Positions 10,233 to 52,140 are shown, counted from the stretch's first letter. The stretch: 64,000 bases of DNA from Rhodothermales bacterium (GCA_965116435.1 OZ220686.1:325005-389004), one strand, 5' to 3'. Notes: generated from the letters alone by a model not told the origin. Translations and numbers: made by a program.

Positions 10233-10270
10233 GCCTGCGGGAGCGAGGGCGCGCGTCTTCGCCGTTTTTC

Positions 10271-10476: not shown

Positions 10477-13400
10477 ATGGAAGCGGATGTATTCAGCGCA
10501 TCCGTAGATACTACGGATACGGTGAGTTACCCATCTTTCAGAAAGAGAGGGGGGGGGGCGCAACCAGACAAACGAGGCGGCGCGCGGCCTGCATGTTCTT
10601 CTCTGAACCGGTCGGGAGAGGCGGTCCGGGCCTTGCGGGCGCGGCAGGCTTCTTTCCCGGCGCTTTGCTGTGTGTGCCTGCTGACCGGGTTCCTCGGATT
10701 CGCCCCCGAAACCGCCGCGCAATCGACCGGAAATGAGGTGACCGTCCGGGTGGACGTCCCGGAATACGTTGTAGAGGGCGAAACGGGGACGGTTACGGTG
10801 ACCTTGAGTAAGGCGCTGAGCCACCAGGTAGATATTCATTTACAGCCTGTAACCCTAGATTGCGACGATACCATCGGCGGAGCGGTACTGAATGGTAAGT
10901 ACACGCATACGATCGATTGCCCGGGAGGCGCAAAACCGATCGGTATAAATGATGTAGACTTCCCTATTGGATGGGTTGTTTTTCCCGCCGGAACAACCGT
11001 CAAAACCTTTTCGCTCGAGGCAGTGGACGACGCCGAATCGGATTCGCCCGAACTCGCTGCGATCGATCTGGCTTTTCGTGACGGCGTTCAACATCGTTGC
11101 CCCCACTGTACGATTGATTCGGCAACGCCTGCTGACGGCTGGACGACTGTTTGGCCGGATTCGGGGCCGGACCGCTTTTACTGGTTCGTTCCCATCCTGG
11201 ACGAAGCGCCGGGCATGGATCGTTCGACGGACAACTTGACGGTACAGGAAGGGAGCAGCAACACCTACACGGTGAAGCTGGCGACCCACCCCATCGCGGA
11301 TGTTGCGACCGTTACGCTGGACGTTCCAGACGGTACGGACCTGACCGTAGTAGATACGGACGGCCATCAGAATACGCTTTCCTTTACCGCATCCAACTGG
11401 AACGAAGCCCAGACCGTCACCGTCACCGCCGCCGAGGATGACGATGCGCACAACGAGACCGTGTCTGTGAAGCATACCCTGGCGGGGGGCATCTACGACA
11501 ATTGGGACGCCCCTCCCCTTAGCGTGACGATCGAGGACAACGACGCGGCCGGGGTAACTATTACGGAGTCGGACATGGCTACCAAGGTCAGCGAACCCAA
11601 CAGTACGGACACGTACGATGTGGAGCTGAAGTCCCAGCCTGCTGACGATGTAATGATTTCGGTACAGGCCGAGGCTGGCGTCACCGTAAAGAAGTCCGGG
11701 GGCACGGCGGCGGCTTCGCAGATGCTGACCTTTACCTCGTCGGACTGGAATACGGCCCAAACGATCACGGTGGCCGCCGTGGATGACGACATCGACGAGC
11801 CCGGCCGCACACGTAACGCCAAGATAACCCATACGTCCTCGTCCGACGACGACGATTATGACGGCGTGTCCGTGCAAGATGTGTTCGCGATCATCCAGGA
11901 CGACGACCCCACCGAGGTGACGTTATCCACGCCGGATTCGACGGCGACAGAGGGAAGTGACTCGGACACGGCGGAAATACTCCTGACGCTGAATCGGGGC
12001 CTTGTTCGCGGCGAAATGCTAACCATGCTGCTTGCATTTTCGGGAGGCGCAGTGGAAACGGACTTCACGTTGAGCCTGAAAGACAGTCCGACGGGCGTAA
12101 TATTTTTGCCCTCGTCGACGGCGGTTGCATTCGCAGGCCCGGAGAACGGAGAGTCGGCAACGTCCGCTACGCTCACCTTGACCGCCTTGAAAGACGCGGA
12201 CGCGCAGGACCAAACGGTAACCGTCTCCATTCCGAGCGAATCTTCGGGTACGCGGCCGGTGCTTATTGTTGCCAACCTGCCCGGAGGCGCGGAGGGCAGC
12301 CGAACGGGCAGCGGGCGGATCGTTTTTACGGACGACGACGAACCTGTGGTGTCCTTTGCATCGGCCACTTCCAGTACGAGCGAGGCGTCGGGCGAGCACG
12401 AGGTCACAATCAACCTGGATCCGGCGCCGGCCTCGAACATCTCGTTGCAATATAGATTCGGCTTCGGCGGCACGGCCACGGACAACGAAGACTATGTATG
12501 GCCGAAGGGATCGGGCAAATCCGCCCCATTGGCGGCGTCTCCGGAGGACGCCACTCTCCCGATTCCCGTAGAAATCATTGATGACAAGGTGACCGAGGGC
12601 GACGAGACGATGATGGTCACGATTCAGCCTGGGTCGGGCTATATCGTAGGCGACCAGGACACGTATACGCTGACCATTATCGATAACGACAAGGGAGGCG
12701 TTACGGTGACGCCGACCTCGCTTGAGCTTACAGAAGGCGGAGGCGCTGAAAAATACACGGTGGTTCTGGATACGGACCCTGGGGGCGAGGTCATGGTGAC
12801 GCCGAGGGCGGCAGATAACGGGGTCGTCAGGGTGTCGGGCCGGTTGACGTTCGACAGCAGCAATTGGGATACGAAGCGGGAGGTGACGGTTACTCCTCTG
12901 GACGATGCGGATGCGAACAACGAAAGCGTAACGATTAGTCATCTCGTCAGCGGCTACGTGGGCGTATCGCAATCGCGGGAGAACGACGTCACGGTACGGG
13001 TTACGGACGACGACAAGGCGGGCGTTACGCTGTCCACGCTTTCGCTCACCGTGCACGAAGGAAGCACGGAGGAATACACGGTCGTTCTGGATACGGATCC
13101 TCTTGTGGAGATCACGGTGACGCCAACCTCGAGCGATCCGGGGGTCGTCGCCGTTTCGTGCGGCGGCGCCGACCCGTGCGCATTGACGTTCGACAGCGGC
13201 AACTGGGATACGGCGCAGACGGTGACGGTTACGCCCGCGGACGATGCGGACGCGGACAACGAAAGCGTAACGATTATGCATACGGTCAGCGGCTATGCAG
13301 GCGTACCGAAGGGCCCCGATGTGGCCGTGGTGGTGGACGACGACGAAGTGCCTGTGGCGGCGGGCGTGGACGCGAACCCGTTGGCCGTGGCGCTCGAGGA

Positions 13401-18704: not shown

Positions 18705-19138
18705 GCGAAGAATTAACGCAAGATCATCAGGAAGCATTGGTTCCGTCCGACGACCTCGATGAAGAAACGCTCCAGGATTTTTTCTTCCTGGAGAAGAGTC
18801 GGGTAGCCGCCGACCGCGAGCGGGTGCAGCTGGGAGTCAAGGCAATCGAAGCCCAGAGTGCTGCTGACCAGCGCCTATACGAATTTCAGATGGCTCAGTT
18901 GGACAAAGGGTATGAGGATAGACGGGACAGGTTCAAAGCGGCGCTAAAAATTATATGGGTCGCATTTGTATTTGTCATGCTGGGCGCTGGAGCGTTGTTC
19001 TACCTTCTTTTTGCAGGCAACGAACTTCAGCAGGATATGGCGTTTGAACTCCTGAAGTTGTTAGGCGCCGCCGTTGCAGGGGGGGGGGCCGTTTCGCTTA
19101 CTGCCAACGCCCTTAAAAAAGCCTCCTCCATGGTATAA
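18701..19138 (+). CDS. Hypothetical membrane protein (145 aa)
   Basis: Acidic coiled N-terminal part, then a TM helix IIWVAFVFVMLGAGALFYLLF. It is coupled to the upstream ORF and contains a G10 tract (AGGGA). Confidence 0.45.
   Translation: MSEELTQDHQEALVPSDDLDEETLQDFFFLEKSRVAADRERVQLGVKAIEAQSAADQRLYEFQMAQLDKGYEDRRDRFKAALKIIWVAFVFVMLGAGALFYLLFAGNELQQDMAFELLKLLGAAVAGGGAVSLTANALKKASSMV
19079..19088 (+). repeat. Homopolymeric G10 tract inside the 18701-19138 ORF
   Basis: Counted directly. Confidence 0.95.
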
Positions 19139-28418: not shown

Positions 28419-28841
28419 ATGCGCGACAAACCGCCCATGCCGGATATCATGGAACGGACGCTTGCCAGCGAAGCCGCAAGCATCGAACGGATCGTTCCGG
28501 AAACGGAAGCCTTCCTTGCAGGGCGCGTATCCGACGAGGACCTGGCCTATCGCATCGTGCTCCTGACCGTGGAGGCCGTTACGAACGCCATCGAACACGG
28601 AAACCGGTTCGATCCGGCCAAAAAAGTGCATTTCCGGATGCACGCGGAGGGCGCACGGATCGAGGTGGTCGTAGAGGACGAGGGGGAAGGATTCAACCCG
28701 GAAACCTCTGCCGATCCGCGGGCATGCGAAAACCTGTTGCAGGAGGGCGGGCGCGGCCTGCTTTTCATGCAATCCATGGCGAACCAGGTCGTATTCGAGA
28801 ACGACGGCAGGAAGGTGCGTCTCGTTTTCGATGTCGGGTAA
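28419..28841 (+). CDS. Anti-sigma regulatory factor-type Ser/Thr kinase (HATPase_c, RsbW/SpoIIAB-like)
   Basis: The ORF was trimmed to ATG 28419. It has the N-box EAVTNAIEHG, G1 DEGEGF and G2 GGRGLLFM. About 140 aa. Confidence 0.75.
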   Translation: MRDKPPMPDIMERTLASEAASIERIVPETEAFLAGRVSDEDLAYRIVLLTVEAVTNAIEHGNRFDPAKKVHFRMHAEGARIEVVVEDEGEGFNPETSADPRACENLLQEGGRGLLFMQSMANQVVFENDGRKVRLVFDVG

Positions 28842-31185
28842 AGGTGCAGGAGCCTCTGATCCAGACCGCTTCGCTCCGTCCGGCGCGTTCGCGGGCGCAG
28901 GAGGCCGTACGCCCTCGGGCCGCACCCTGATCCTGCTGGGGCTGCTGGTCCTCGCCATGGGCGGCATGGCGTGGGGGGCTGCGGCGCCGGAAACCCGCGG
29001 GGCCTTCGTCGCGTCGGCGCTGGCCGCTGGCGCGCTCTGCGTCCTCGTCTGGAAACACGGGGATGTCTCCATGCCCGTCGTGATTGGCCTGGCCCTCGCG
29101 TTCCGGCTGGCCGTATGCTGGCTGCCCCCGACCCTCTCCGACGACGCCTACCGGTACGTATGGGACGGCCTCGTGCAGGCCGAAGGGCATAATCCGTATC
29201 TGCATGCGCCGGACAGCCCGGACCTCGAAGCCCTGCGAGACGAACCCCTGTACGAGGAACTCAATTCGCAGCGCCTGCACACGGTATACCCGCCCGTCTC
29301 CCAGCTCGTGTTCCGGATCGGGGCCGTGTTTTACGACCGGGGGTGGGTCGTTTCCTGGTTTGTGATCAAGGGGATTCTCGCGCTCCTTGAGTTCGGAGCC
29401 GTACTTGTGCTGGCGCGCATGCTTTCTCCCCGGCAATTGCTGCTCTACGCATGGAACCCGGCGGTGGCGCTGGTCGGAGCCGGGCAGGGACACAGCGAAG
29501 CAGCCATGGCGCTGTTTCTGGCGCTGGCGTTGTATGCGTTGCGAAAGGACCAGGGCGTCCGGGCGTCCGTCTGGCTGGCCTGTGCCGGCGGGGTCAAACT
29601 ATATCCGTTTTTGCTGCTTCCTTTTCTGTGGCGTCGCTTTGGCTGGAAGAGCGTAGCGGCGAGCCTCGGCATGGCGCTTCTGCCCGCGTTGCCGTTCTTG
29701 CATGTTGGAATAACGGATATCATGCAAAACATGGGATCATCGCTTCATCTCTATGTGCGCCTTTTTGAATTTAATGCTGGATTATACTATTGCTTGAAGT
29801 ATTTTTTGATGCTTTTGACGGGATTGGACGTGGGAAAACTGCTCGGGCCGATGCTTGCGGCGGCGTATCTGGGGGGGCTGGGGGCGCTCTATGCGGGCTA
29901 TGCGCGGCGCAGAAAACCCACCGGAACCGGTTGGAAAGCCTGGGCGGATTCGCACGCAAAAAAGCATGACACCCGAGGAGCGATACCTACGCTCCCTGCC
30001 GGAGCCGGCTGGAAGGCCTGGGCGGATTCGCACGGCATTTTGCGGGAAGATGGCCCCCTGCGGCCTCTGTTTGTTTGGGCGGCGGGCGGATTTCTTGTAT
30101 GCGCCACCACCGTGCATCCGTGGTATTTGCTGGGCGTGCTTGTGCTCGCTGCGCCTGCGGAACGCCCGGCATGGCATTGGTGGGGGCTGTCCCTGTGCTC
30201 GCTCGGGACCTATTGGCTCTATACGGGCGGCCCCTACTGGCTGTGGGTCTGGATGGGGTGGGGCGGATGGACCGCGCTGGCCGCCTGGCGCTATCGCGGT
30301 CCGCTCACGGACCTGTTGTTGCGGGCCCGCGCCGCCCGCAAAGCCGCCCGCGTGGCGCGTTTTCTGGCGGGGTCCCGGTCGGTGCTGGATGTGGGAGCCG
30401 CCGAAGGATATGTCGGCGCGAACGTGGAGAAACGTCTTGCGGCGAACGCGGCGAAACGCCTTGCGGCGGGCAGGTGGGGAGCGGTGCGTTTTCTGGCGGG
30501 GTCCCGTTCCGTGCTGGATGTGGGGGCCGCCGAGGGGTATGTCGGGGCTAATGTGGCGAAACGCCTTGGCGCGAACGCGGCGAAACGCCTTGGGGCGAGC
30601 AAGGAGGTAGCCGTGCGCCTGGTGGATATTCAGGATCGGAACCGGACTTCGCTGCCGCTGGACGTATACGACGGGCAGCGTTTGCCCTACGCTTCCGATG
30701 CGTTCGATGCGGCTCTCCTGATTTTCGTCCTGCACCACGCCGACCGCCCGGAGGCGCTGCTCCGCGAAACCTTACGGGTGGGCCAGCGCGTAGCGATCCT
30801 CGAATCGACGTATGTATGGGGATGGGAACGGGCCTTGCTCGGACTGCTGGATCGGCTGGCGAATCGCCTGCGGGCGGAGGGTTCTGGGACCGGGTTGGAG
30901 GGTTCTATGTCTGGGTCAAAAGGGCCTGCGCCCAAGTCGGAAGGGTCTACGCCCAAGTTGGAGAGGTCTGCGCCCAGGTTGCGGGGGGGGGGGGTGTCCA
31001 GACTGGAGGGGCCGCTGGGCTTTCGGACCCATGAGGCCTGGCTGGATTGTTTTCGCGAGATGGGACTCCGGGTGGTGCACTCAGCACAGTCTCGCCGGTG
31101 CGTGGACCGGCAATCGCTGTTTGTGGTGGAGTGGGGAGATGGGGTAGCGGGGGGTGTTTCCCCGAGCAAGGATGCCCCTCGCTAA
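28831..31185 (+). CDS. Polytopic GT-C-like membrane glycosyltransferase (DUF2029/GT87-like) fused to a class I SAM methyltransferase domain
   Basis: 784 aa. It has multiple TM helices and an early loop motif LSDDAYRYVWDGLVQAEGHNPY. The C-terminal part has VLDVGAAEGYVG (motif I, present twice) and FDAALLIFVLHHADRPEALL. It also contains several internal tandem duplications and a G12 tract. Confidence 0.6.
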   Translation: MSGKGAGASDPDRFAPSGAFAGAGGRTPSGRTLILLGLLVLAMGGMAWGAAAPETRGAFVASALAAGALCVLVWKHGDVSMPVVIGLALAFRLAVCWLPPTLSDDAYRYVWDGLVQAEGHNPYLHAPDSPDLEALRDEPLYEELNSQRLHTVYPPVSQLVFRIGAVFYDRGWVVSWFVIKGILALLEFGAVLVLARMLSPRQLLLYAWNPAVALVGAGQGHSEAAMALFLALALYALRKDQGVRASVWLACAGGVKLYPFLLLPFLWRRFGWKSVAASLGMALLPALPFLHVGITDIMQNMGSSLHLYVRLFEFNAGLYYCLKYFLMLLTGLDVGKLLGPMLAAAYLGGLGALYAGYARRRKPTGTGWKAWADSHAKKHDTRGAIPTLPAGAGWKAWADSHGILREDGPLRPLFVWAAGGFLVCATTVHPWYLLGVLVLAAPAERPAWHWWGLSLCSLGTYWLYTGGPYWLWVWMGWGGWTALAAWRYRGPLTDLLLRARAARKAARVARFLAGSRSVLDVGAAEGYVGANVEKRLAANAAKRLAAGRWGAVRFLAGSRSVLDVGAAEGYVGANVAKRLGANAAKRLGASKEVAVRLVDIQDRNRTSLPLDVYDGQRLPYASDAFDAALLIFVLHHADRPEALLRETLRVGQRVAILESTYVWGWERALLGLLDRLANRLRAEGSGTGLEGSMSGSKGPAPKSEGSTPKLERSAPRLRGGGVSRLEGPLGFRTHEAWLDCFREMGLRVVHSAQSRRCVDRQSLFVVEWGDGVAGGVSPSKDAPR
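30357..30614 (+). repeat. In-frame 129-bp tandem duplication (43 aa) duplicating the SAM-binding motif I region, with nested 21-bp sub-repeats
   Basis: RFLAGSRSVLDVGAAEGYVGANV.KRL.ANAAKRL.A occurs twice, with units starting at 30357 and 30486. Confidence 0.9.
30983..30994 (+). repeat. Homopolymeric G12 tract inside the glycosyltransferase-methyltransferase CDS
   Basis: Counted directly. It encodes RGGGV. Three 21-bp repeats (30918-30980) lie just upstream. Confidence 0.95.
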
Positions 31186-31378
31186 GGTGCGGCCTGTCCC
31201 GGACAACCTGTCCGCTATGTCCCTGCGGCGCACGGGTGCGGGTGGCAGAAGACGCGGGGACGGCAGGGCACGATGCAGGTGTCGGTGACGCGGGTGCGCG
31301 TATTTCCGGCCCGACATTGCGGTACCCTGCGCGTCTCAGGGACTCTCCGGGCTGTTGTCGCAGGAGTGCACGGTTTTT

Positions 31379-31773: not shown

Positions 31774-32589
31774 TTAATCTCGCATTCGTAGTTTCGATTC
31801 GGAAAACAGTGGGTCCCCGAAGAGGGAAAGCGTTGCGGCGGCGGACGATTCTTCGTCGGTTTCTCCGGTTTTCCCAGAGCGTCCCGCCTGGTCTGCGCCG
31901 CCCGCTCGTTCAGGTCGTTCGGCGCGGTACGCGCGCGTCCACGAGCGAGGGGGATAGGCGGCGACCAGCGTTTCCGCATAGAGGGCGCCGCTTGTCAGTA
32001 GCGCCACGGCCTGGTTGAGCGCCGCAACCCGATGCTCGACCGGAACCTGTTCGAGCGACGTTCCACGCAGGCGAGCGCACGCCCAGGCCCCTTCCATCAG
32101 CACATACAGGCGGTGGACGGTTCCGGCAATGTCCCGAAAACCGGCGTCGGCGCTCCATTTTTGCAATTCGGCGCGGATGGCCTCCTTGTGGCGGCGAGCA
32201 AGCCGGTTTGCCGCATGCTCCGCGTCGGGGTATTCGCTCAAGGCCATCTGGAACGGGCACCCCCGGCAGCGGGGCGAGGCCGTGCGTTCGGCCAGGACGA
32301 AGAAAAACGCCTTGATCTTTTCCAGAGGAGTCCGGGCGCTTTCGGTGCTTTTGCGAAGCCAGTGCAGGACCTGGGCGGCTTCTATGCCGAGGTACTCCAG
32401 TACAAGTTCGTCCTTGGACTTGAAATACCGGTATAGCGTGCGCTTCGCTACGCCGGCCTCGCGGGAAATAGCGTCCACAGACACCGCCTGATACCCCTTG
32501 GCTCCGAACAACGCATCGGCGGCGCTCAGAATATCCGTACGCAATTGTTCTCCTTGCACCTCGGGCTGGGCCCGACCGGTTGCATTCAT
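31774..32589 (-). CDS. TetR/AcrR family transcriptional regulator
   Basis: The HTH region is LRTDILSAADALFGAKGYQAVSVDAISREAGVAKRTLYRYFKSKDELV. The start was set at ATG 32589 (MNATGRAQ). The ORF stays open upstream through a repeat region, so a longer form starting at ATG 33021 cannot be excluded. Confidence 0.75.
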   Translation of the reverse strand: MNATGRAQPEVQGEQLRTDILSAADALFGAKGYQAVSVDAISREAGVAKRTLYRYFKSKDELVLEYLGIEAAQVLHWLRKSTESARTPLEKIKAFFFVLAERTASPRCRGCPFQMALSEYPDAEHAANRLARRHKEAIRAELQKWSADAGFRDIAGTVHRLYVLMEGAWACARLRGTSLEQVPVEHRVAALNQAVALLTSGALYAETLVAAYPPRSWTRAYRAERPERAGGADQAGRSGKTGETDEESSAAATLSLFGDPLFSESKLRMRD

Positions 32590-32599
32590 GTCGTGCGGT

Positions 32600-32960
32600 G
32601 TTTGCGGGGGTGTTTCGCGAGATTTTGCCGGGGATGTTTCTTGGAACGTTTCCTGGGGCGTTTCCCGAGGTGTTTTGCGGGATGTTGCCGAGGATGTTTC
32701 CCGGGGCGTTTCCCGAGAGGAGGCTTCCTGAGGCGTTTCGCCGCGTGTTTCCCGGGACGTTTCTCCGTGCGTTTCCCGGGGTATTTCCTGAGGCATTTCT
32801 TGGGGTGTTGCCCGAGGTGTTTCGCGGGATGTTGCCGAAGATGCTTTGCCGAGCGCTTCGCGGGGAGTTGCTCGAGAGGAGGCTTCCTGAGGCGTTTCTC
32901 GAGGCATTTCGCCGCGTGTTTCCTGAGGCGTTTCTCCGTGCGTTTCCCGGGGCGCGGCGG
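32600..32960. repeat. About 360 bp of degenerate 12-bp periodic repeat (GTTTCCCGAGGC-like; reads ETPR/ETPQ/ETSR on the minus strand)
   Basis: The periodicity was read directly. All six frames are largely open. The region is contiguous with, and in frame with, the TetR ORF. Confidence 0.8.
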
Positions 32961-33199
32961 TGCGCTTCGGCGGCGCCGGGTGATACGCGCGATGCGCCGT
33001 GATATTTTGGGTGATCGGCATGTTTTCGTGCCTGCGCTGCTTTTTCCGTCCGTGTCGTTCCGTAGGCGTAGCCCTTTCCGTAAAACGTGTCTGTCGTTCC
33101 CTAAGGCATATCCATCTTTCTGTAAGGCGCATCCCGTACTCTTCGGTTGCCGGCTGCCGGATTCCTGATTTCCCAGGTTTTCCAGGCGGATACCAACGG

Positions 33200-33350
33200 G
33201 TAGACCGCACGGTATACACGGGCATCATAAGAAGTAGACCCGACGGTATACCCGCTTGTTCCCACAGTATACTGCTCGGTCTACTTTTGTTCCGGTAAGT
33301 ATACCGATCGGTATACAGCAAACGATTGGTCGGTATACTGACCGGTATAC
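33200..33350. promoter_or_regulatory. Cluster of GTATAC-centred palindromes (putative TetR operator array)
   Basis: There are seven GTATAC hexamers in 150 bp of a GC-rich genome. They include a perfect 18-bp palindrome GTATACCGATCGGTATAC (33299-33316), a near-palindrome GGTATACTGACCGGTATACC (33332-33351), and three copies of GTAGACC-N5-GTATAC, one of them inverted. Confidence 0.4.
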
Positions 33351-33635
33351 CGATTGTGTTTACAGGAGGGCGAGGGGGGTGGGACGTACTAAGGAGACGG
33401 CACAGGGGCTGGGCCGTCCAGTCGATGCGAGGAAAGCCCGGAACGTGCGTCCGGGATGCAAGGAGGGAGGCAGCGGAGAGGGCGGGGCCGCCGGTGGAGA
33501 GGGCGCCGCGCAAGCCGGATTTCAGGGCGATTCTCGCGGCGTACAGCGTGCTACTATGCGGTTTTCCGGCGTTTGTCGTGCGAGAGCGCGGCGAGATACG
33601 CGCAAAAAGAAGCCGAAACGAGGCCGCTTTCGAGA

Positions 33636-40666: not shown

Positions 40667-43197
40667 ATGCCGAAAAAGAAAGACATTGAAAGCTACGCGC
40701 ACACCGATAAGGAGCGGACGAACAACCCTCCCGTCGGGCTGGTAACCCCTGAAACCGATCGGGATCAAGGCAGGAAGGGCTATGCTCACGATCCTCATAT
40801 CGACCCACAACTCGTCTGGGCCGGAAAGGCGGAGCATACGTCGTTCGAGGTCCCGACCGTCTCGCTGCATGTGCACGAACGCATAGATGCGCGTACGATC
40901 ATCGAGGCGACGCGGAAACGCAATGGCGCGCTGCCCCAGCCTTCGTTATTTGAAGGTCTGGGGGAAAATCCGCCGCTTCGCCAAGCCATCGAGTTCTACC
41001 GGCACAAGCATAACTGGACCAACCGCCTCGTTGCGGGCGACAGCCTGCTCGTCATGAACAGCCTGCTGGAAAAGGAAGGGCTTGGCGGGCAGGTGCAGAT
41101 GATTTACATAGATCCGCCGTATGGAATCAGTTACGGATCGAATTTCCAGCCTTTTGTGAATACGCGAAATGTGAAGGACGGAGAGGATGGGGATTTGACT
41201 GCAGAACCGGAACAGATCCGCGCTTTTCGAGACACCTGGGAAATGGGCATCCATTCCTATCTGGCGTATCTGCGAGATCGCCTTCTGATTTCGCGGGAAC
41301 TACTCACCGAGAGCGGTTCCTGTTTCGTGCAGATCGGCGATGAAAACATCCACCGCGTGGGTATGGTGATGGACGAAATTTTCGGCGCAGAGAATCGCAT
41401 AGCTACCATATCCTTCGCCACAACGAGCGGAAGTTCCACGTCCACCCTGCCACAAGTAGCCGATTACCTTCTCTGGTACGCAAGGGATCACAAAAAGGTG
41501 AAATACCGGCAAATATATGAATCCCTGACGCGGAGTGAGATAGTAGACCTTTTCAATTGGGATGTCATGGTAGAATTGCCGGATGGCGCATGCCGGAAGC
41601 TTACCCCCCAGGAACGCTTTGATCCCGATGCATATTTGCCCGAAGGCGCTCGCATTTATCAACGCACCGGACTGGATTCGCAAGGTGTTTCTACAACAGG
41701 TCGCTCCGAGCCTTATGAATGGAACGGCAGGGTATTTCCTTGCGGGAAAAATCGCCATTGGTCCATTTCCAAAGAAGGCATGGACCGTTTGGCCGAGCTG
41801 GGCAGACTGGAAGCGCTTGCTGGCCAAGAGTCGCTCAGGTGGAGAAAATACGAAAATGAAGTGCCAGGGCGACGCATCAACAATGTCTGGCCAGTCAAAA
41901 TGTACCCCAGCACAAAATCCTATGTGGTGGAGACCTCTACGAAAGCCATCCAGCGTTGCCTGCTGATGACCACGGATCCCGGCGATCTTGTGCTTGATCC
42001 CACTTGCGGTAGCGGAACCACGGCCTTCGTCGCCGAGCAGTGGGGACGAAGATGGCTTACTTGCGATACCTCGCGCGTTGCTATCACACTGGCCAAACAG
42101 CGGCTGATGACGGCGCATTTCGACTATTACGAATTGGCGCATCCTGACGAGGGAGTAGGTAGCGGTTTTCGCTACAAAACAGTCCCGAAGGTTTCTCCCA
42201 AGGTTCTCACAGGCGACGAATCGCAATCTGATATAGTCCTCTACGACCAGCCCCTGAAAGACAATAAAAAGTTTCGCGTCACGGGTCCATTCACACTGGA
42301 AGCCGTGCCTGCGCCTACGGTAAAACCGCTGGACGATATACAAGATACCCCCCCCCCCCCCACACGCCACCAGATGACTCGGTTGCTCGCTCGGGAGAAA
42401 CGCTCCGCCAGAGCGACTGGCGCGACGAATTGTACAAAACCGGCATCCGAGGCAAGGCCGGGCAGCGTATCTCATTTGTCCGCCTGGAACCACTTCCTGG
42501 CTGTCACTGGCTACACGCCGACGGGGAGACGCGCTCTGATAATGCCGAAACGGACTCCGAACGGGTTGTTATTTCCTTCGGTCCCGATCATGCTCCATTG
42601 GAACAACGCCAGGTGGCCTTAGCCATTGAAGAGGCGCAAAACCTCGTTCCCAAGCCGAAAATCATCGTTTTTGCCGCTTTTCAGTTTGACCCCGAGGCTG
42701 CCAAAGATATCGACGAAACAAATTGGCCCGGCGTAACTTTACTCAAGGCGCAAATGAACGCGGACCTGCTGACGGGAGACCTGAAGAAAAAACGCTCCAG
42801 CAACGAAAGCTTCTGGCTTATCGGCCAACCGGACGTAGAATTGGAAACAATGCAAGACGGCAAACTGCGGGTATCCGTACTCGGATTCGACTACTACAAT
42901 ACAAAAACCGGCAAGCCGGAATCCGGCGGATCGGACCGAATCGCCGTGTGGATGCTGGACCCGGATTACGATGGCCGTAGCCTGTTTCCGCATCAGGTTT
43001 TCTTTCCTTTGGCCGGTCCCAAAGACGGCTGGACCCGCCTTGCGCGCAACCTGAAGGCCGAGCTCGACGAACGTCTCATAGAAGCCTATCGCGGCACAAC
43101 CTCCCTTCCCTTCGAGCCGGGCGAGCACCGGCGCGTGGCGGTCAAGATCGTGGACGACCGGGGCATTGAAAGTTTGAAAATTGTGGAGGTGGGTTGA
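40667..43197 (+). pseudogene. mod: Type III-like DNA methyltransferase (Mod, N6/N4 beta-class), split by a frameshift inside a C14 tract
   Basis: Motif IV IYIDPPYG precedes motif I LVLDPTCGSGTTAFVA. Frame 2 (40667-42622) leaves the expected sequence at the C tract. The conserved C-terminal domain (..DWRDELYKTGIRGKAGQRISF...AFQFDPEAAKDIDE...DYDGRSLFPHQVFFP) continues in frame 1 directly from the tract to 43197. A tract of C15 or C12 would give one ORF of about 840 aa. Confidence 0.8.
42348..42361 (+). repeat. Homopolymeric C14 tract at the mod frameshift
   Basis: Counted directly (3+10+1 C across the line breaks). Confidence 0.95.
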
Positions 43198-45067: not shown

Positions 45068-47773
45068 CTACCGTAGCAGCGTCATTTTCCTCGTGAGCGT
45101 TTCTCCGTTCGCCTGGAGTCGATAGACGTACAGGCCCGACGGCAGGCTGTCCGCGTCGAAGCGTACGGTATGCGTTCCTGCCGGGCACACCCCGTCTACG
45201 AGGACGCCTACGCTGCGCCCGGTGGCGTCGAATACTTCCAGGCGGACGTGTTGGGGGGCGGGAAGCTCGTATTCTATCGCCGTCGAGGGGTTGAACGGGT
45301 TCGGGTAGTTCTGGCCCAGCGCAAACGCATCCGGGAGTTCCCCTTCGGGAGATTCTATCGACGTTACGTTTTCATCTTCCGAGATGATCACGTCCACAGA
45401 TGCGGGCGTCCCTCTCGAAAAACCGGCGGGCAAGGCTCCGAACGTTACCGTGAACGTTTCGTCCTCCATGTCGTCGTCCTTTGTGGTGAGGATCCAGTCC
45501 GTTCCGAAGGGTTCGTTTGCGTCTATGACGATGGTTGCGAGGGCCACGTAGTCGCCTGTTTCGCCGTCGTTTGTGGTGAAGACGAGGGGCAAGGTCACCA
45601 CGCTGGGTACGGTATGCGCCAGTTCGGCGTGGATGGTGGCTCTTCTGCCTTCGTAGATGGGGTTCGGGTACACAGCCAGCGTAATCTGGGTCGGGTCGTT
45701 GCCGCCACCGGGGTCGCCGCCACCGGGGTTTCCTCCGCCCGGGTTTCCACCACCGCCGCCCGAATCATCGTCGTTCACCGTCACTGTCGCGGAGTTGGCG
45801 CTGCCCACCGTGTAGCCATTGCCGTTTTTCAGCGTTACCGTCACCGAGCCGTTCGCCTCATCCGCGTTGTCGTCCTCGGTGGAGATGGCGACGGTTGTGC
45901 TGGCTGCGGAGATGCTCCGCGTCTTGTCGCCAAGTTGGCCGGACGCCAAGAACGTTCCGCTTTGCGAGACCGTGTAGGCGACCGTGATGCTGCTACCCGG
46001 CGCAGGGTTCGACGAAATGGTGAACGAAGCATCGCCGCCCTCGGTCACCGCCGACCCACCGGTGATGGTTAGCTCCGGCGTCGCTGTAGCCCGATCGTTG
46101 TCCGTAATCGTCAGCGTGTGCATAGCTCTCGTCGTGCCGACATTGTAGCCCGTGCCGCTACCCAGCGTCAAAATAACCGTCTCGCTGCCTTCCACCACGC
46201 TGTCGTCCGTGATGGCGACCGGAATGCTCGCCGTGCCCGAAGTCCCAACGGTGATTGAGCCGCTATTACTACTCACCCCGTTGATAGAATAATCCGTCCC
46301 GCGCGTGGCGCCGCCGGAGAGCATGTAGTTCACCGTAACGTTCCCACTTGGCGCAGGGCTGAGATTCACCGCGACGTTTTGTGTCCCGCCGCCCTCCGCC
46401 GCGCTCGAAGCGGACGCCCCGAAGTTCGCTTCGGGCGTACTTGGCGCATCGTCGTCCGTCACCGTCACCGTCACGCTGGGGATAGAGAACGTCGTCAACG
46501 CCGCCGGACGGTACTTCTGGCCGTCCCCGTCGCCCGCCTCGATCGTGTGCGTGATCGTACGGGTGCGCTCGCCGCCCGTATTCACGATGTGGTCGTTCTG
46601 GCCCGTGATCGTCACCGTCTGCGCCGTGCTCCAGTTGCTTGTCGTGAACGTCAGCGTATCTTTTGCCTTCGGCTTCGCATTCCCGCCGGGACCGTCCACG
46701 AACGCTGCGCCTCCGGCGGTCACGGTGATGATCACTTGCCCCGCAGGCCGCGTGTCCAGGCCCACGGTGTAGGTCGCCGTGCCTCCGTTCTCCGCGACCG
46801 TGCGGGCGCTCTGCGATACGGTCACTCCCGCCGTGTCGTTGTCGTTCACGGTCACCGTCGCGGAGTTCGCGGTGCCCACCGTATAGCCCGTGCCCGCGTT
46901 TACGGTCACCGTCACGCTGCCGTTGTTCTCGTCCGTATCGTCGTCCACGGTGGAGACGGAGTGGGTAGCGGAGCCGGACGTGGGTACGGAAACCGTCTTG
47001 CTGCTGCCGATCAATCCAGAGGTTGCGAAGTTGCCGCTCTCGCTCACGGTCAGTTTGACGGTGAGGGCCGAGGCCGGCGCAGGGCTTGCCGTCACCGTGA
47101 AGCTGGCATCCGCGCCCTCGGTCACGGAAGACGATCCCCCCGCAATAGTGACCTCCGGGAGGGTTACGGTGTCGTCGTCAAGGATCGTGTGGGTATGGGT
47201 CGATGTGCCGAGGGTGACATCCGAACGGGCGTTGCCGAGAAAGGATAGCGTTGCGATCACCGTCTCGTCGGACTCAACGTCGGTGTCGCCCCGCACCTGG
47301 ATGGCTATGTGAGGATAATCAAGGCTGGAAAAAGCATCCGCTCCCAATGATGCCTTTTCGCAGGTGCTTGCACGGGGGCTGTTGGACAATATCGTTCGGT
47401 AGTCTGCGCCTGGGGTGCCCCAACCACCTTGACCATCATCTTGCGTATTGATGGTCGCCGTGCCACTGAAACAGATCTCAAAAGGCACAGTACCTGGTAC
47501 CTGCTTTGACAGGGTCACCGTGTAGGCAAGGCTCCTTATACCCGAATCCCCTTCGTTCGCGTCCGCAGGTCCACTGATAGACAGGGTGGCGGCCTGCGCG
47601 GCGGCCTCGTAGACCGGTCCCCATACCATACACAGCGCGGCCAGCCACGCTATCCATAGAATGCGGCGACAGGAAAGGGCGCGCCGCGCCGCCGAAGCAG
47701 CGCCTGATTTACAAGATAGCCCCCCCCCCCTCACGTTCGAGGAATCATTCTCCCGAAGAAACGAAGAAATCAT
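45068..47773 (-). CDS. Secreted Calx-beta repeat protein with T9SS C-terminal sorting domain (paralogue A, in frame)
   Basis: 901 aa. The leader is MISSFLRENDSSNVRGGGLSCKSGAASAARRALSCRRILWIAWLAALCMVWGPVYEAAAQA. It has Calx-beta modules, a linker GGGGGNPGGGNPGGGDPGGGN, and the C-terminus FALGQNYPNPFNPSTAIEYEL...LYVYRLQANGETLTRKMTLLR. Confidence 0.85.
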   Translation of the reverse strand: MISSFLRENDSSNVRGGGLSCKSGAASAARRALSCRRILWIAWLAALCMVWGPVYEAAAQAATLSISGPADANEGDSGIRSLAYTVTLSKQVPGTVPFEICFSGTATINTQDDGQGGWGTPGADYRTILSNSPRASTCEKASLGADAFSSLDYPHIAIQVRGDTDVESDETVIATLSFLGNARSDVTLGTSTHTHTILDDDTVTLPEVTIAGGSSSVTEGADASFTVTASPAPASALTVKLTVSESGNFATSGLIGSSKTVSVPTSGSATHSVSTVDDDTDENNGSVTVTVNAGTGYTVGTANSATVTVNDNDTAGVTVSQSARTVAENGGTATYTVGLDTRPAGQVIITVTAGGAAFVDGPGGNAKPKAKDTLTFTTSNWSTAQTVTITGQNDHIVNTGGERTRTITHTIEAGDGDGQKYRPAALTTFSIPSVTVTVTDDDAPSTPEANFGASASSAAEGGGTQNVAVNLSPAPSGNVTVNYMLSGGATRGTDYSINGVSSNSGSITVGTSGTASIPVAITDDSVVEGSETVILTLGSGTGYNVGTTRAMHTLTITDNDRATATPELTITGGSAVTEGGDASFTISSNPAPGSSITVAYTVSQSGTFLASGQLGDKTRSISAASTTVAISTEDDNADEANGSVTVTLKNGNGYTVGSANSATVTVNDDDSGGGGGNPGGGNPGGGDPGGGNDPTQITLAVYPNPIYEGRRATIHAELAHTVPSVVTLPLVFTTNDGETGDYVALATIVIDANEPFGTDWILTTKDDDMEDETFTVTFGALPAGFSRGTPASVDVIISEDENVTSIESPEGELPDAFALGQNYPNPFNPSTAIEYELPAPQHVRLEVFDATGRSVGVLVDGVCPAGTHTVRFDADSLPSGLYVYRLQANGETLTRKMTLLR
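47720..47730 (-). repeat. Homopolymeric G11 tract (C11 on the + strand) in the leader of paralogue A
   Basis: Counted directly. It encodes RGGG between ATG 47773 and the signal peptide. Confidence 0.95.
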
Positions 47774-47851
47774 GCTGTCCTCTGGTTTTGTTCAACGTAT
47801 CCTTGTATTCAACATAACCTGCATGCGTAATAATATACGATGCGCCCCACC

Positions 47852-47881
47852 ATTTTTTCAAGAGGAAGTATGTCGCTTAAA
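47852..47881 (-). promoter_or_regulatory. Candidate sigma70-like promoter of paralogue A (TTGAAA-18 nt-TATATT)
   Basis: The sense strand reads TTGAAAAAATGGTGGGGCGCATCGTATATT, about 78 nt upstream of the ATG. The same motif with the same spacing is conserved upstream of paralogue B. Confidence 0.3.
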
Positions 47882-48581
47882 CCCGCCCTTCCAGATACGC
47901 CTTGCGGGTCTTTTCATCAAAGCGTTCGATGGCGTAGCGGAGCATGGTTCGAGGCATGTTGCGGTAATGGCGGCGCAGAAAGGCTTCTTCGGCAGCGCGG
48001 TCCTGTTTTCCCACTTCGCGCAACATCCACCCTACGGCCTTGTGAATGAGGTCCTCCTTGTCGTTCAGCAGTTGTTCGGCCATCAGAAGAAATTCGTCGA
48101 AGCCGCCCCGTTTGATATACCAGTAGGCGGCGATTACCGCAATGCGGCGCTTCCACAGGCTTGCGTCGCGGACCCACTCGAAAAGCAGGTCCTTCTTTCC
48201 TGCCTCCAGATGCGCTCCGACGATCTTGTGCGCAGAGGCATCGACCAGATCCCAGTTGTTGACGTACTCGACCCGTTTCAGATAGAGATCGAACATCGCT
48301 TGCTTTTGCGCGGCGTCTCCGCGTTCGTATCGCCGGATTATCATAAAGAGCGCGCAAAGCCGGTCTTCATGCCACGGGGATATGAGCAATTCTTCCACTG
48401 CGGACATATCCGCCGCGTCGCAGGCCCGGGCCAGTTTGCGAAGCGCCGGAACGCGAATGCCCCGGAACTGGTCCCCTTCTCCATATTCGCCGGGCCCGGT
48501 TCGGAAAAAACGCGCGGAATGGGCCGCAATGTCGGGATTGCCCAGCGCCTTGAGGCGAGCCTGTATGTCTGTCCGGGTCAT
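47877..48581 (-). CDS. DNA alkylation repair protein (AlkD/AlkC-like HEAT-repeat glycosylase family)
   Basis: The ORF was trimmed to ATG 48581 (MTRTDIQARLKALGNPDIAAHSARFF). It has GIRVPALRKLA, NNWDLVD, WKRRIAVIA and HKAVGWMLRE motifs, which are typical of the family. Confidence 0.8.
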   Translation of the reverse strand: MTRTDIQARLKALGNPDIAAHSARFFRTGPGEYGEGDQFRGIRVPALRKLARACDAADMSAVEELLISPWHEDRLCALFMIIRRYERGDAAQKQAMFDLYLKRVEYVNNWDLVDASAHKIVGAHLEAGKKDLLFEWVRDASLWKRRIAVIAAYWYIKRGGFDEFLLMAEQLLNDKEDLIHKAVGWMLREVGKQDRAAEEAFLRRHYRNMPRTMLRYAIERFDEKTRKAYLEGRV

Positions 48582-48720
48582 GAGGGCGTTCGGGGGAGGC
48601 GTTACAATACGAACGGATGGGGACTCCGTGCGAGTACAAGAATCCGCCCTAAAATACGGTTTTTCGGCCACAGCGGCGCGCCTGGGGGAAATAGTTCGAG
48701 GGCGGACCGCTTCCTTCGCC

Positions 48721-48801
48721 CTACCGCAGCAACGTCATTTTCCGTGTCAGCGTTTCTCCGTTCGCCTGGAGCCGATAGACGTACAGGCCGGAAGGCAGGT
48801 T
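48721..48801 (-). pseudogene. 81-bp relic of the 3' end of a further Calx-beta/T9SS-CTD paralogue
   Basis: The reverse strand reads NLPSGLYVYRLQANGETLTRKMTLLR-stop, which is near-identical to the ends of paralogues A and B. It sits 27 bp from the genuine stop of paralogue B. Confidence 0.8.
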
Positions 48802-48827
48802 ATTCTATGCTGCCACTTCTCCCCAAC

Positions 48828-51800
48828 CTACCGCAACAGCGTCATTTTCCTGGTGCGCGTTTCGCCGTTCGCCTGGAGGCGATAGACGTACAGGCCCGAG
48901 GGCAGGTTGTCCGCGTCGAAGCGTACGGAATGCGTTCCTGCCGGGCGGATCCCGTCTACGAGGACGCCTACGCTGCGCCCGGTGGCGTCGAACACTTCCA
49001 GGCGGACGTGTTGCGGAGTGGGCAACTCGTATTCTATCGCCGTCGAGGGGTTGAACGGGTTCGGATAGTTCTGGCTCAGGGCAAACGCTTTCGGGAGTTC
49101 TCCTTCGGGAGATTCTATCGACGTTACGTTTTCATCCTCGCTGATGATTACGTCCACAGATGCGGGCGTCCCTCTCGAAAAACCGGCGGGCAAGGCTCCG
49201 AACGTTACCGTGAATGTTTCGTCCTCCATGTCGTCGTCTTTCGTCGTGAGAATCCAGTCCGTTCCGAAGGGTTCGTTTGCGTCAATGACGATGGTTGCGA
49301 GGGCCACGTAGTCGCCTGCTTCGGCGTCGTCTGTGGTGAAGACAAGCGGCAAGGTCACCACGCTGGGTACGGTATGCGCCAGTTCGGCGTGGATGGTGGC
49401 TCTTCGGCCTTCGTAGATGGGGTTCGGATATACGGCCAGCGTAATCTGGGTCGGGTCGTTGCCGCCACCGGGGTTTCCTCCGCCCGGGTTTCCACCACCG
49501 CCGACACCTGGGGCCGTCGAATCGTCGTTGTCGGTGATGGTGAGCGTGTGGGTCGTCGCACTGCCCAGCGTGTAGCCCGCGCCGCGGGTAAGGGTCAGGA
49601 TGACCGTCTCGGCGTTCTCGACGGCGCTGTCGTCGTTGATGGCAACAGGGATGTCTGCGGCGCTCGCCCCGGGGGCGATCGTCAGCGAACCTGAGTTCTG
49701 GATGGTGAAGTCGTTGCCGCTGCCCGCCGTCGCGGTGCCGGAAACGCTGTAGCCGAGCGAGAAGCCGCGCGAAGGCGCCGGGGAGATGTTGACCGTCACA
49801 TTGTGCGTGCCGGCGCTCTCGGCCGCGCTCGAAGAGACCGCCGCGAAGGACGCCGTGGCGATGGCCTCGACATCGTTGTCCTCGATGGTGAGCGTCGCCT
49901 CGGTGATTGACCCCGCCGTGACGCCAGCCGGCAGGTTCGCCGTGTCGATGGCCACCCTGAAGGTCTCATCCCCTTCAAAGGCCGTGTCCTCAAGGATGGG
50001 AATGTCAATGGAGTAGCGGGTATTGCCGTCCGCCTTGAAGACCAGTTGGCTAACCAGTGTGTAGTCCGCGCCGCCCGTCGCAGTGATGTCCGTAAAGATC
50101 AGCGGAACCGTAATATCGCGTCCACTCGCCGGCGTCACAGTAAAGGTCGGTTGGGCAACACCTGCACCTTCATTGGCGGCGAAGGCGTCCCGAATGAAGG
50201 ACAGCGTTACCGAAGACGGTGCATCGGTGATCGTCATCGTTTGGGTCGCGCCGCCGAGTGACAGCGTCACCGTCTCGTTCGACTCAGACAGGTTGTCCCC
50301 AAGGGTCTCCAGATGCAGCGGCCCCGCGGTACGGCGGCGACCCTGCAAGATCGCACCGTCGAAGGTTATCGAAGGATTGTTGCCGTTGAGGCCGCTACAG
50401 GTGGCGACCGCTGCTGATTCCACAGACCTGCAGGCCAGCCGGTAGTCCGTCCCGAGCGTGGCGGCGCCACCGATGGTCAGCGGCAGCGTTACTGTCTCGC
50501 TGTTGCCCAACGCCTCGCTTAAATATATATTGAAATAGACGACTGCGCCTTCAGGCAAGGTGGTAACACCGCTGCCGGAACTAAGTTGTGCGGTGACCGG
50601 CGCATCGTCGTCCGTCACCGTCACCGTCACGCTGGGGATAGATAATGACGAGAATGACACCGGACGGTACTTCTGGCCGTCCCCGTCGCCCGCCTCAATC
50701 GTGTGCGTGATCGTACGGGTGCGCTCGCCGCCCGTATTCACGATGTTGTCGTTCTGGCCCGTGATCGTTACCGTCTGCGCCGTGCTCCAGTTGCTTGTCG
50801 TGAACGTCAGCGTATCTTTTGCCTTCGGCTTCGTATTTCCGCCGGGACCGTCCACGAACGCCGCGCCTCCGGCGGTCACGGTGATGGTCACTTGCCCCGC
50901 AGGCCGCGTGTCCAGGCCCACGGTGTACGTAGCCGTGCCTCCGTTCTCCGCGACCGTGCGGGCGCTCTGCGATACGGTCACGCCCGCCGTGTCGTTGTCG
51001 TTCACGGTCACCGTCGCGGAGGAGTTGGAACTGCCCACCGTATAGCCCGTGCCCGCGTTTACGGTCACCGTCACGCTGCCGTTGTTCTCGTCCCTATTGT
51101 CGTCCACGGTGGAGACGGTGTAGGTAGCGGAGCCGGACGTGGGTACGGAAACCGTCTTGCTGCTGCCGGTCGATCCAGAGGTTGCGAAGTTGCCGCTCTC
51201 GCTCACGGTCAGTTTGACGGTGAGGGCCGAGGCCGGCGCAGGGCTTGCCGTCACCGTGAAGCTCGCATCCGCGCCCTCGGTCACGGAAGACGATCCTGCC
51301 GCAATAGTGACCTCAGGGAGGGCTACGGTGTCGTCATTGAGAATCGTGTGGGTATGGGTCGATGTGCCGAGGGTGACGCCGGCAGGGGGGGTGTTTCTTA
51401 ACCTCAACGTTGCGATCACCGTCTCGTCGGGCTCAACGTCGGTGTCGCCCCGTACCTGGATGTCTATGCGAGTATTTGCGAGAGAGCCGCCTGCCTGATG
51501 TGCTGAATGGAAGCAGGTGGTTCCAGTGGCGCCGCCGTCGGTTCTCGTCCGGTAGTCCGCGCTTGAGCTCCAACCATTAAATGTGGTATTCGCAGTTGCC
51601 GTGCCACTGAAACAAAGCTCCCACTCCACAATGCTTGATACCGCCTGTGACAGGGTCACCGTGTAGGTACGGGTCCTCGCGCCCGAATTCCTCTCGTTTG
51701 CGTCCGCGGGTCCACTGAGCGACAAGGTGGTGTTGTTCTGCGCGGCGGCCTCGGAGATCGGGCCCCATACGGTACACACCATACACAGCGCGGCCAGCCA

Positions 51801-51940
51801 CGCTATCCATAGAACGCGGCGAGCGAAAAGGACGCGCCGCGGCGCCGAAGCAGCACCTGATTTACAAGATAGCCCCCCCCCCCCCTCACGTTCGAGGAAT
51901 CATTCCCAGAATCGTTCCCCCGAAGAAACGAAGAAATCAT
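48828..51940 (-). pseudogene. Calx-beta/T9SS-CTD paralogue B, with its start codon out of frame because of a G13 tract (candidate phase-OFF allele)
   Basis: The body ORF 48828-51782 (984 aa) starts only at a Met inside the hydrophobic core (MVCTVWGPISEAAAQ). The homologous leader MISSFLRGNDSGNDSSNVRGGGG starts at ATG 51940 in another frame and stops at 51803. G11 or G14 would fuse the two. Confidence 0.8.
51873..51885 (-). repeat. Homopolymeric G13 tract (C13 on the + strand) in the leader of paralogue B
   Basis: Counted directly (8+5 C across the line break). Confidence 0.95.
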
Positions 51941-51999
51941 TGCTTTCCTCTGGTTTTGTTCAGCGTATCCTTGCAGTTGGCATAACCTGCATGCGCAAT

Positions 52000-52029
52000 A
52001 ATATACTATGCGCCCGACCATTTTTTCAA
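52000..52029 (-). promoter_or_regulatory. Candidate sigma70-like promoter of paralogue B (TTGAAA-18 nt-TATATT)
   Basis: The sense strand reads TTGAAAAAATGGTCGGGCGCATAGTATATT, conserved with the paralogue A upstream region. Confidence 0.3.
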
Positions 52030-52140
52030 GAAGAGTTATGTCTCCCCAGGCGGGTCCGAACCATCTCTCCGGGAGCCTGGCCGAAACGATCCCTATCTGG
52101 AAGTCTCTGGCGAAGCGTCCGCCCCGGCTGTACAAGTTTA

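Follow-up and report, generated by a model that had tools for sequence, protein, structure and literature searches.

What does a run of 11 or 13 guanines do between the start codon and the signal peptide of a gene for a secreted protein? The question is raised by two neighboring paralogs, here called A and B, in a 64,000-nucleotide (nt) stretch of DNA from a Rhodothermales bacterium (GCA_965116435.1, OZ220686.1:325005-389004). This whole stretch is referred to as the window, and positions are counted in it unless a related contig is named; A and B both lie on its minus strand. Their adhesin-like products combine Calx-beta domains with a type IX secretion system (T9SS) C-terminal sorting domain. 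A preliminary description of the window proposed that the poly-G tracts act as slipped-strand ON/OFF switches of translation, with A in frame (ON) and B out of frame (OFF). The analysis reported here supports this proposal. A slipped-strand frame switch between the start codon and the signal peptide is the best explanation of the locus, and we put its probability at roughly 0.74. The coordinates of all features are collected in Table 1.

Recounting and translation of both genes confirmed the described frames. From its leader ATG, paralog A reads MISSFLRENDSSNVRGGGLSCKSGAASAARRALSCRRILWIAWLAALCMVWGPVYEAAAQ... and continues through RGGG-LSCKSGAASAARRALSCRR-ILWIAWLAALCMVWGPV-YEAAA/Q (the slash marks the predicted cleavage site) as one open reading frame (ORF) of 901 amino acids (aa). 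In B, the frame opened by the leader ATG encodes MISSFLRGNDSGNDSSNVRGGGGYLVNQVLLRRRGASFSLAAFYG, which runs through RGGGGYLVNQ... and ends at the stop codon 51805-51803. The body of B is in another frame, which contains no stop from the tract down to 48828. Reading on from the tract in that frame, no ATG, GTG, or TTG is encountered before codon 30, which is the Met of ...LAALC-M-VCTVWGP in the hydrophobic core, so that the body can be started only inside the core, as had been described, and would then span 48828..51782. Editing of the B tract in silico restores the long product with G11 (1019 aa) and with G14 (1020 aa), counted from the GTG adjoining the tract, in agreement with the earlier claim that removal of two G or addition of one is sufficient. 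The same counting gives 8 aa for G12, 28 aa for G13, and 9 aa for G15.

In both genes the G run is situated about 40-55 nt inside the reading frame, directly after GTGA. The GTG that adjoins each tract (GTGA-Gn) shares the frame of the upstream ATG and provides an alternative start, which leaves the ON/OFF logic unaffected. Both products match Calx-beta (PF03160) and Por_Secre_tail (PF18962) above the Pfam cut-offs (for PF18962, 33.2 bits in A and 35.5 bits in B at a cut-off of 27), and the assignment of the pair to T9SS Calx-beta proteins stands. A Sec signal peptide, RR-ILWIAWLAALCMVWGPV-YEAAA/Q, is predicted only in the ON frame; it was judged by eye from the most hydrophobic 15-residue stretch, the preceding RR, and the AAA-Q motif. 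No T9SS machinery genes were found within the 64-kb window (the genome is 3.07 Mb).

The tract lies in the predicted transcribed region, downstream of the promoter, the Shine-Dalgarno (SD) motif, and the ATG, and upstream of the only signal peptide. Since the G run separates the only usable start codons from the signal peptide, its length modulo 3 decides the outcome. At G11 or G14, ribosomes would reach the signal peptide and the product would be exported by Sec and then by the T9SS. At G10, G12, or G13, they would stop after 8-65 codons, and the body would be left without an export signal. G12 alleles have a stop two to three codons past the tract, and G10 and G13 alleles encode a 45-65-residue leader peptide, terminated by a conserved TAG immediately ahead of the hydrophobic core. 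Single G's would be gained or lost by slipped-strand mispairing in replication. With slippage at each run, each gene would flip heritably and reversibly, and a population would mix combinations of surface proteins.

The tract lengths were compared with those in eight contigs of related strains (L001 and L003-L009), fetched via the neighboring ATPase and a close homolog of A. All lengths are assembly consensus lengths. Together with the window, these contigs provide 21 copies of the family, and the gene order around the DNA_alkylation repair gene is identical in L003-L009. The preliminary description had made its proposal depend on orthologs having a tract at this position, and GTGA-Gn is present at the same site in all 21 copies. 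The tract is G11 in eight copies, G10 in nine, G12 in three, and G13 in one; in every copy the only in-frame length is 11 (or 8, or 14). Of the 13 OFF tracts, 12 differ from 11 by a single step; the remaining one, the G13 of the window, is one step away from 14. Length varies on near-identical flanks in each of the three gene slots. In the first slot, occupied by B, the window has G13 and five contigs have G11. In the second slot, the window has G11, four contigs have G10, and one has G12. In the third slot, two contigs have G12 and two have G10. This comparison, which the preliminary description had suggested as a check, came out in favor of the slipped-strand reading, with varying length on near-identical flanks and intact OFF copies.

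The OFF copies are intact and under purifying selection. All complete copies, that is, those wholly inside the locus, have a stop-free body of 791-1026 codons, and the four copies running off a locus end show no such body in their visible part. The ratio of nonsynonymous to synonymous substitution rates (dN/dS) is 0.12-0.19 for pairs of orthologs that are both OFF, at dS of 0.14-0.20. These genes must therefore have been expressed over evolutionary time. Judging from the divergence of the sequences, they have been kept functional far longer than a dead gene would last, which is predicted by a reversible switch and not by a pseudogene. That B is a recent pseudogene, the product of a one-way frameshift in a redundant paralog, is accordingly hard to credit. 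B is indeed frameshifted and has an intact paralog next door. However, its body has 1014 codons without a stop, its dN/dS against its ON orthologs (0.31-0.35) is below neutrality, and its sole lesion is in the one hypervariable tract. Moreover, the states are reversed between strains: in the window A is ON and B is OFF, and in the sister strains B is ON and the A-type copies are OFF. Each of the eight clusters has exactly one in-frame member, which is a lead only, as the clusters are non-independent and some run off the locus.

Another way to account for the OFF states is that they are long-read consensus errors at runs of at least ten G, the true length being in frame in all copies or, at the least, in that of B. 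The contig names (ctg125656_435x_l, ctg49599l) suggest long-read metagenome assemblies, and long G runs are hard on every platform, including the 'G's end' artefacts of Illumina reads (PMC9187656). Short-read copies of the family were sought and none was obtained: a scan of metagenome contigs for the leader pattern GTGAGGGGGGGG-N{5,12}-TTGTAAATCAG gave one chance match, a G8 with unrelated flanks. Nevertheless, lengths differ within the same data set on identical flanks (G12 and G10 in the third slot, G10 and G12 in the second, and 9, 10, and 12 in a tract of a 5' untranslated region [UTR] described below), whereas a systematic error would repeat the same wrong length in the same context. Coverage is 435-1972x for most contigs. 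The G13 of B and the C14 of a methyltransferase gene of the window (C12 in a sister strain; see below) are off by two and not by one. Miscalling would also require 13 of the 21 copies to be wrong, yet no shorter homopolymer breaks a housekeeping ORF. Finally, read-level heterogeneity that confused the consensus would itself indicate a hypermutable tract. We therefore consider miscalled homopolymers an unlikely source of the pattern.

The long runs are over-represented in the window. The numbers of G and C runs in the window fall from 60/34 at length 5 to 12/9 at length 6, 4/2 at length 7, and zero at lengths 8 and 9, but there are seven runs of 10-14. Extrapolation of the decay in this table (about 0.25 per added base) gives an expectation of about 0.1 run of at least ten. 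No G/C run of at least eight was found in about 155 kb of housekeeping-rich DNA of sister species, nor in the first 12.5 kb (housekeeping) of L003-L009. All long runs of the eight related loci fall in the variable region, and the housekeeping ORFs of the window are intact.

The tract is embedded in a 5' module with a constant order of elements: a sigma-70-like promoter, about 50 nt of 5' UTR that include the SD-like motif AGAGGA, the ATG with a short leader, GTGA-Gn, an Arg-rich stretch, and the hydrophobic core of the Sec signal peptide. The promoter-like site is kept in all 21 family copies, as are the AGAGGA motif and the leader ATG. The leader differs between copies by indels of 3, 6, 9, 12, 51, or 72 nt, and a 1-nt indel is seen only upstream of the ATG, in the 5' UTR. 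That the leader indels are all multiples of 3 supports translation of the leader from the ATG.

Public gene calls for the family (P0001-P0022, P0025, and P0027) nearly always start at the Met of the signal-peptide core (MVWGPVSEAAAQ...), including in the in-frame paralog A; the called lengths are 853 aa for A and 984 aa for B. Because gene callers start at this internal Met, the deposited protein sequences and the annotations of these metagenome-assembled genomes (MAGs) lack both signal peptide and tract. If these calls, or a start at another downstream codon, were correct, the tract would be in the 5' UTR and irrelevant. A few paralogs with a start just before the hydrophobic core would also fit such an interpretation. 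On the other hand, a protein begun at MVWGPVYEAAAQ would retain six hydrophobic residues but lack a charged n-region, and would therefore have no Sec signal, and T9SS cargo must first cross the inner membrane via Sec (PMC12618676). The best-conserved peptide of the leader, RR-ILWIAWLAALC, is located upstream of the internal Met, the leader indels preserve the frame, and the SD-like motif precedes the upstream ATG and not the internal Met. Initiation downstream of the tract is thus very improbable.

A hairpin, GCGCUGC-UUCG-GCGGCGC, with a UUCG tetraloop is found 16 nt after the tract at 47699-47682 and at equivalent positions in all leaders. One of its positions changes from C-G to U-A between copies, and the leader segment containing it is duplicated (72 nt) in most copies. 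Such a stable hairpin downstream of a G run, which is formally a slippery heptamer (G GGG GGG), recalls a decoding site. In this alternative, RNA polymerase slippage or ribosomal -1/+1 frameshifting gives some in-frame product whatever the tract length, which makes the OFF copies low-expression alleles and the tract a rheostat, and purifying selection on G10 copies in several diverged strains looks as if they were still expressed. In other bacteria, transcription is known to slip on long homopolymers, mostly on A/T runs; relative to these, G/C runs are poor substrates for RNA polymerase slippage. The hairpin begins 16 nt past the run, compared with a usual spacing of 5-9 nt for stimulatory structures, and the leader folds no better than its shuffles (z = -0.16). 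Programmed frameshift or slippage sites have a run of fixed length and a constant shift; here the length varies from 10 to 13, and the required shift differs in sign, G12 alleles needing the opposite one. Leaky decoding can also coexist with DNA-level switching rather than replace it. As a replacement for the frame switch we regard it as improbable.

Several observations weigh against a slipped-strand switch as the full explanation. The second slot has G10 in four of five syntenic contigs from the same sample (L003, L004, L008, and L009) at dS of 0.15-0.2, the related copy in L001 also has G10, and the B slot has G11 in all five contigs. Tract length is thus less scattered than a very fast switch might predict, which needs selection or mutational bias, or points to a decoding mechanism. 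The comparison made here is between assemblies of different strains; the hallmark of a hypermutable tract is a mixture of lengths inside one population. The sister contigs carry metaMDBG-style names; should these denote PacBio HiFi assemblies, as they seem to, the length of homopolymers would be what such assemblies render least reliably. In L007_16632, an ON copy, a 1-nt offset separates the frame of the ATG from that of the tract-adjoining GTG, so that the GTG may be the start codon or a second, alternative one; the tract is inside the reading frame with either codon. In the sister strains, four of the OFF copies contain a GTG in frame, nine codons ahead of the hydrophobic core (MRRGLSARR-LLWIAWLAAL...), which could bypass the switch and yield a textbook signal peptide; no such GTG is present in B of the window. 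Among family members in the database, P0028 starts at this pre-core site, and P0030 uses the other frame of the leader. Not every member therefore depends on the switch, and some members may have escaped it. With these reservations, the slipped-strand switch still agrees with the testable properties of contingency loci found here, namely a long over-represented repeat, a frame-changing position, length polymorphism among orthologs, and an intact gene under selection.

Table 1. Features of the tract-bearing genes (window positions, except where a related contig is named).
Feature	Position	Strand	Details
Third T9SS Calx-beta gene	4839..10232	+	ATG 4839; C10 tract 4853-4862, five codons in (MRRNSPPPSLSG...); predicted signal peptide RRILRTRGFAAFLFALLGVAGLAGFA; in frame (ON)
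Fourth T9SS Calx-beta gene	10477..15075	+	ATG 10477; G10 tract 10549-10558 (codon 25; ..FRKRGGGAQPD..); predicted signal peptide ..FPALCCVCLLTGFLGFAPETAAQ; in frame (ON)
G10 tract	19079..19088	+	Near 3' end of a 147-codon membrane-protein ORF; a length change alters the C-terminal tail only
G12 tract	30983..30994	+	Near 3' end of GT87 + methyltransferase ORF 28831..31185; a length change swaps the last 16-67 residues
res	37833-40649		938 aa; adjoins mod; gene order res then mod
mod, Type III restriction-modification	40667..43197	+	Frameshifted by C14 tract 42348-42361
Paralog A	45068..47773	-	901 aa; Calx-beta and T9SS C-terminal sorting domain; ATG 47773-47771
A, tract to predicted signal-peptide cleavage site	47597..47719	-	LSCKSGAASAARRALSCRR-ILWIAWLAALCMVWGPV-YEAAA/Q
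G11 tract of A	47720..47730	-	After GTG 47734-47732; in frame (ON)
SD-like motif and leader ATG of A	47771..47783	-	AGAGGA 47783-47778; ATG 47773-47771
Promoter-like site of A	47832..47861	-	TTGAAA, 18-nt spacer, TATATT; 10/12 consensus matches
DNA_alkylation repair gene	47877..48671	-	Between A and B; syntenic marker
B body, ON frame	48828..51872	-	1014 stop-free codons: signal-peptide region 51872-51741, two Calx-beta stretches, T9SS C-terminal domain
B leader ORF, out of frame	51803..51940	-	45 codons + TAG; start ATG 51940-51938
G13 tract of B	51873..51885	-	After GTG 51889-51887; out of frame (OFF); G11 or G14 would give ON
SD-like AGAGGA of B	51951-51946	-	Just 5' of ATG 51940
Promoter-like site of B	52000..52029	-	TTGAAA, 18-nt spacer, TATATT
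Poly-C upstream of DNA_alkylation gene, L003	18994-19003		C10
Poly-C upstream of DNA_alkylation gene, L004	19114-19122		C9
Poly-C upstream of DNA_alkylation gene, L008	19116-19124		C9
Poly-C upstream of DNA_alkylation gene, L009	19086-19097		C12

The two paralogs were originally presented as twins. They are real paralogs, but they are not a special pair: they belong to a larger family and to a set of tracts extending over the window. The third and fourth T9SS Calx-beta genes, on the opposite strand, each have a tract between the ATG and the signal peptide. Inspection of the third gene revealed no in-frame start codon from the tract to the hydrophobic core, and the fourth is preceded by TTGCAA-N17-TATTAT, from 10407. 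In L001, a further T9SS gene has a G10 tract inside the signal peptide. Not all tracts are of this type. Two others in the window lie near the 3' ends of ORFs, and one in the related strains is located 10 nt upstream of the ATG of a DNA_alkylation gene, where four contigs from the same sample have poly-C of 10, 9, 9, and 12; the latter lies downstream of a promoter-like TTGTAA...TATTGT site.

The remaining tract of the window interrupts mod, the methyltransferase gene of a restriction-modification (R-M) system of Type III (PADLOC MTase_III, E = 2e-153). Depending on the tract, the mod product has 651 aa (C14, as in the window), 569 aa (C13), 842 aa (C12), or 843 aa (C15). When corrected to C12, the gene of the window encodes a protein with 100% identity to P0253, from the sister-strain contig behind L007, whose own tract has that length. 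Tract length, C14 in the window and C12 in the sister strain, is thus the sole difference between the two at the protein level, and C14 truncates the product. The tract is at codon 560 of 842, in a linker 3' of the methyltransferase domain, so truncation may alter, rather than abolish, the activity. Homologs of 90-92% identity read VSPSPA in place of the poly-Pro encoded by the tract, which makes the tract a lineage-specific gain in the linker. The locus therefore resembles a Type III phasevarion, with mod, its partner res, and an intragenic repeat whose length varies between strains and alters the product. Surface proteins together with a Type III methyltransferase are classic phasome content. 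In sponge-associated MAGs of other phyla, identity within the mod family is 75-92%, for instance 78% to Nitrospira sp. SB0677_bin_15, which suggests that the family has probably spread horizontally among sponge symbionts. A TIR-domain gene (43194-44021; Pfam CAP12-PCTIR_TIR, PADLOC PDC-S35) follows mod.

A near-common flank, (A/G)TG(A/T)-Gn-(C)TATCTTG, surrounds tracts at otherwise unrelated genes (47720/51873, 42348, and 4853 in the window; 20859-20868 in L005; 21754-21765 in L007). It reads GTGA-Gn-CTATCTTGTAAATC in the T9SS leaders, GTGT-Gn-TATCTTGTATATC on the antisense strand of mod, ATGA-G10-CTATCTTGG at a small membrane-protein gene of L005, and, in inverted orientation, GTGA-G10-CTATTTCTG at the gene starting at 4839. 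Within the fetched loci, TATCTTGTANAT occurs next to tracts only. The recurrent flank could mean that tracts are created or maintained in a sequence-directed manner rather than at random. A 5' switch cassette made up of the promoter, the leader, GTGA-Gn-CTATCTTG, and the signal peptide might be portable and be homogenized by gene conversion across the mosaic T9SS Calx-beta family; we offer this as a speculation with the odds against it. If it were true, the sponge symbiont would have a programme resembling antigenic variation. An inserted cassette at mod was considered and rejected, as the flank there encodes the conserved D-I-Q-D of tract-free mod homologs. An invertible promoter, an idea raised by the inverted GTGA-Gn-CTAT at the gene starting at 4839 and by the shared GCGCATGCA, was also discarded: no convincing inverted repeats bracket the promoters.

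Paralogs A and B are mosaics of each other (45068-52070). Their nucleotide identity is 94-96% in the 5' module, in a central block of about 750 nt, and in the C-terminal domain (CTD), and 50-60% in the blocks between these conserved parts, which suggests that recombination or gene conversion among paralogs has probably taken place.

Other repeats of the window comprise tandem arrays just upstream of three T9SS Calx-beta genes (4293-4539, 32 nt x7.7; 10264-10358, 42 nt x2.2; 15587-15706, 39 nt x3.1), an intergenic repeat of 142 nt x2.8 (31371-31766), and degenerate 12/24/36-nt repeats (CGTTTCCCGGGG-like, 32597-32954) inside the ORF 31774..33513 on the minus strand, which has a TetR_N domain. 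The G12 tract at 30983-30994 is directly downstream of a 21-nt x2.7 repeat (30920-30976). No Rfam matches and no tRNA genes were found in the window.

The IMP dehydrogenase (IMPDH) of the window is 88% identical to that of the sponge MAG 'Bacteroidetes bacterium SB0662_bin_6' and 77-80% identical to those of Rhodothermales MAGs and Rhodothermus marinus, and the related contigs derive from a metagenome of the sponge Petrosia ficiformis. Judging from these similarities, the organism is a Rhodothermales-related sponge symbiont. With a G+C content of 60.6% in the window, it fits the high-GC host of the Fibrobacteres-Chlorobi-Bacteroidetes (FCB) group that had been named initially. Sister species were identified via IMPDH (L011-L021); they lack the twins in the slot after the ATPase and have other genes there, and their loci were used only as a negative control for tracts. 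In L011, L012-L015, and L018-L020, the copper ATPase is followed by a WD40-repeat protein, a metallopeptidase, an HNH endonuclease, and MazE/PemK. A variable island thus occupies the space between the ATPase and the DNA_alkylation gene. A search of the genome contigs with protein A gave one unrelated match only, of 32% in the CTD.

Repeat-driven phase variation is textbook knowledge for a few host-restricted pathogens and has lately been shown in a few gut and vaginal commensals. If confirmed, the present case would extend it to the Rhodothermales/FCB lineage, to T9SS cargo, and to an uncultured sponge symbiont. The preliminary description suspected that such a switch had not been described before, and our literature search revealed no paper linking repeat-based phase variation to T9SS cargo, and none reporting it in Rhodothermales or in sponge symbionts; coverage of the search was incomplete, and this is absence of evidence only. 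How sponge symbionts escape being eaten or rejected by their host is an open question. The switched proteins share the Calx-beta module with sponge aggregation and allorecognition factors, and the aggregation factors are built from Calx-beta domains (PMC5400394, PMC11670116). The most likely role of switching would be to vary the surface proteins that the sponge host or phages encounter, and the co-resident phase-variable Type III methyltransferase suggests that phage defense is varied too. On the practical side, existing MAG annotations show neither the signal peptides nor the switch.

The mechanism itself is classical. Homopolymeric G/C contingency loci are known from Campylobacter, Neisseria, Haemophilus, and Helicobacter, for instance the Neisseria phasome (PMC5953494) and the capA/capB autotransporters (PMC7168839; reviewed in PMC8355987). 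In common with the present genes, they encode surface or secreted proteins and have a run of at least eight in the 5' coding region, a frame set by length modulo 3, lengths that differ between strains, and many loci per genome, including R-M methyltransferases. The present case differs in its host, which is a sponge symbiont of the free-living type with about 60% GC and not a host-restricted pathogen of low or medium GC, and in its T9SS cargo; furthermore, switching is read here from sequence alone. Campylobacter and Helicobacter genomes lack mismatch repair.

Closer parallels are found in high-GC commensals. The nanH3 sialidase gene of Gardnerella has a poly-C of 8-14 adjoining the signal peptide, which annotations lose (bioRxiv 10.1101/2020.09.16.300947), and sortase-pilus genes of Bifidobacterium breve are switched by a G11/G12 tract (PMC9187656). 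Both share with A and B a tract of 8-14 within about 100 nt of the start, by the signal-peptide region, lengths of the G11/G12 type, and out-of-frame lengths that lead to an annotated protein without a signal peptide. In nanH3 the tract is just after the signal peptide, whereas here it precedes it, inside an unusually long N-terminal extension, and, unlike in either commensal, a whole multigene family shares the module. The switches of nanH3 and B. breve are backed by clone-library or maximum-depth sequencing, and the present one by comparison between strains only.

Phasevarions are governed by phase-variable Type III mod genes (PMC5149525, PMC7383803). The window likewise has a Type III mod with an adjacent res and an intragenic repeat that differs between strains (C14 or C12) and truncates the product. 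It differs from the known phasevarions in the position of the tract 3' of the methyltransferase domain, in the gene order of res then mod, and in being recognized at the sequence level.

The organization of the whole family is reminiscent of the vlp, vsa, and vsp families of Mycoplasma, in which a conserved 5' module (promoter, homopolymer, and signal peptide) is joined to divergent mosaic bodies of surface lipoproteins that are combinatorially ON or OFF. In M. hyorhinis vlp, a poly-A in the promoter spacer exerts transcriptional control, and other families use site-specific inversion. The proteins are non-homologous to those described here, and control in the present family, in contrast to vlp, would be exerted at the level of the translational frame. 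What they have in common is a conserved 5' module attached to mosaic bodies: A and B are 94% identical in the module, and some of their internal blocks are only 50-60% identical.

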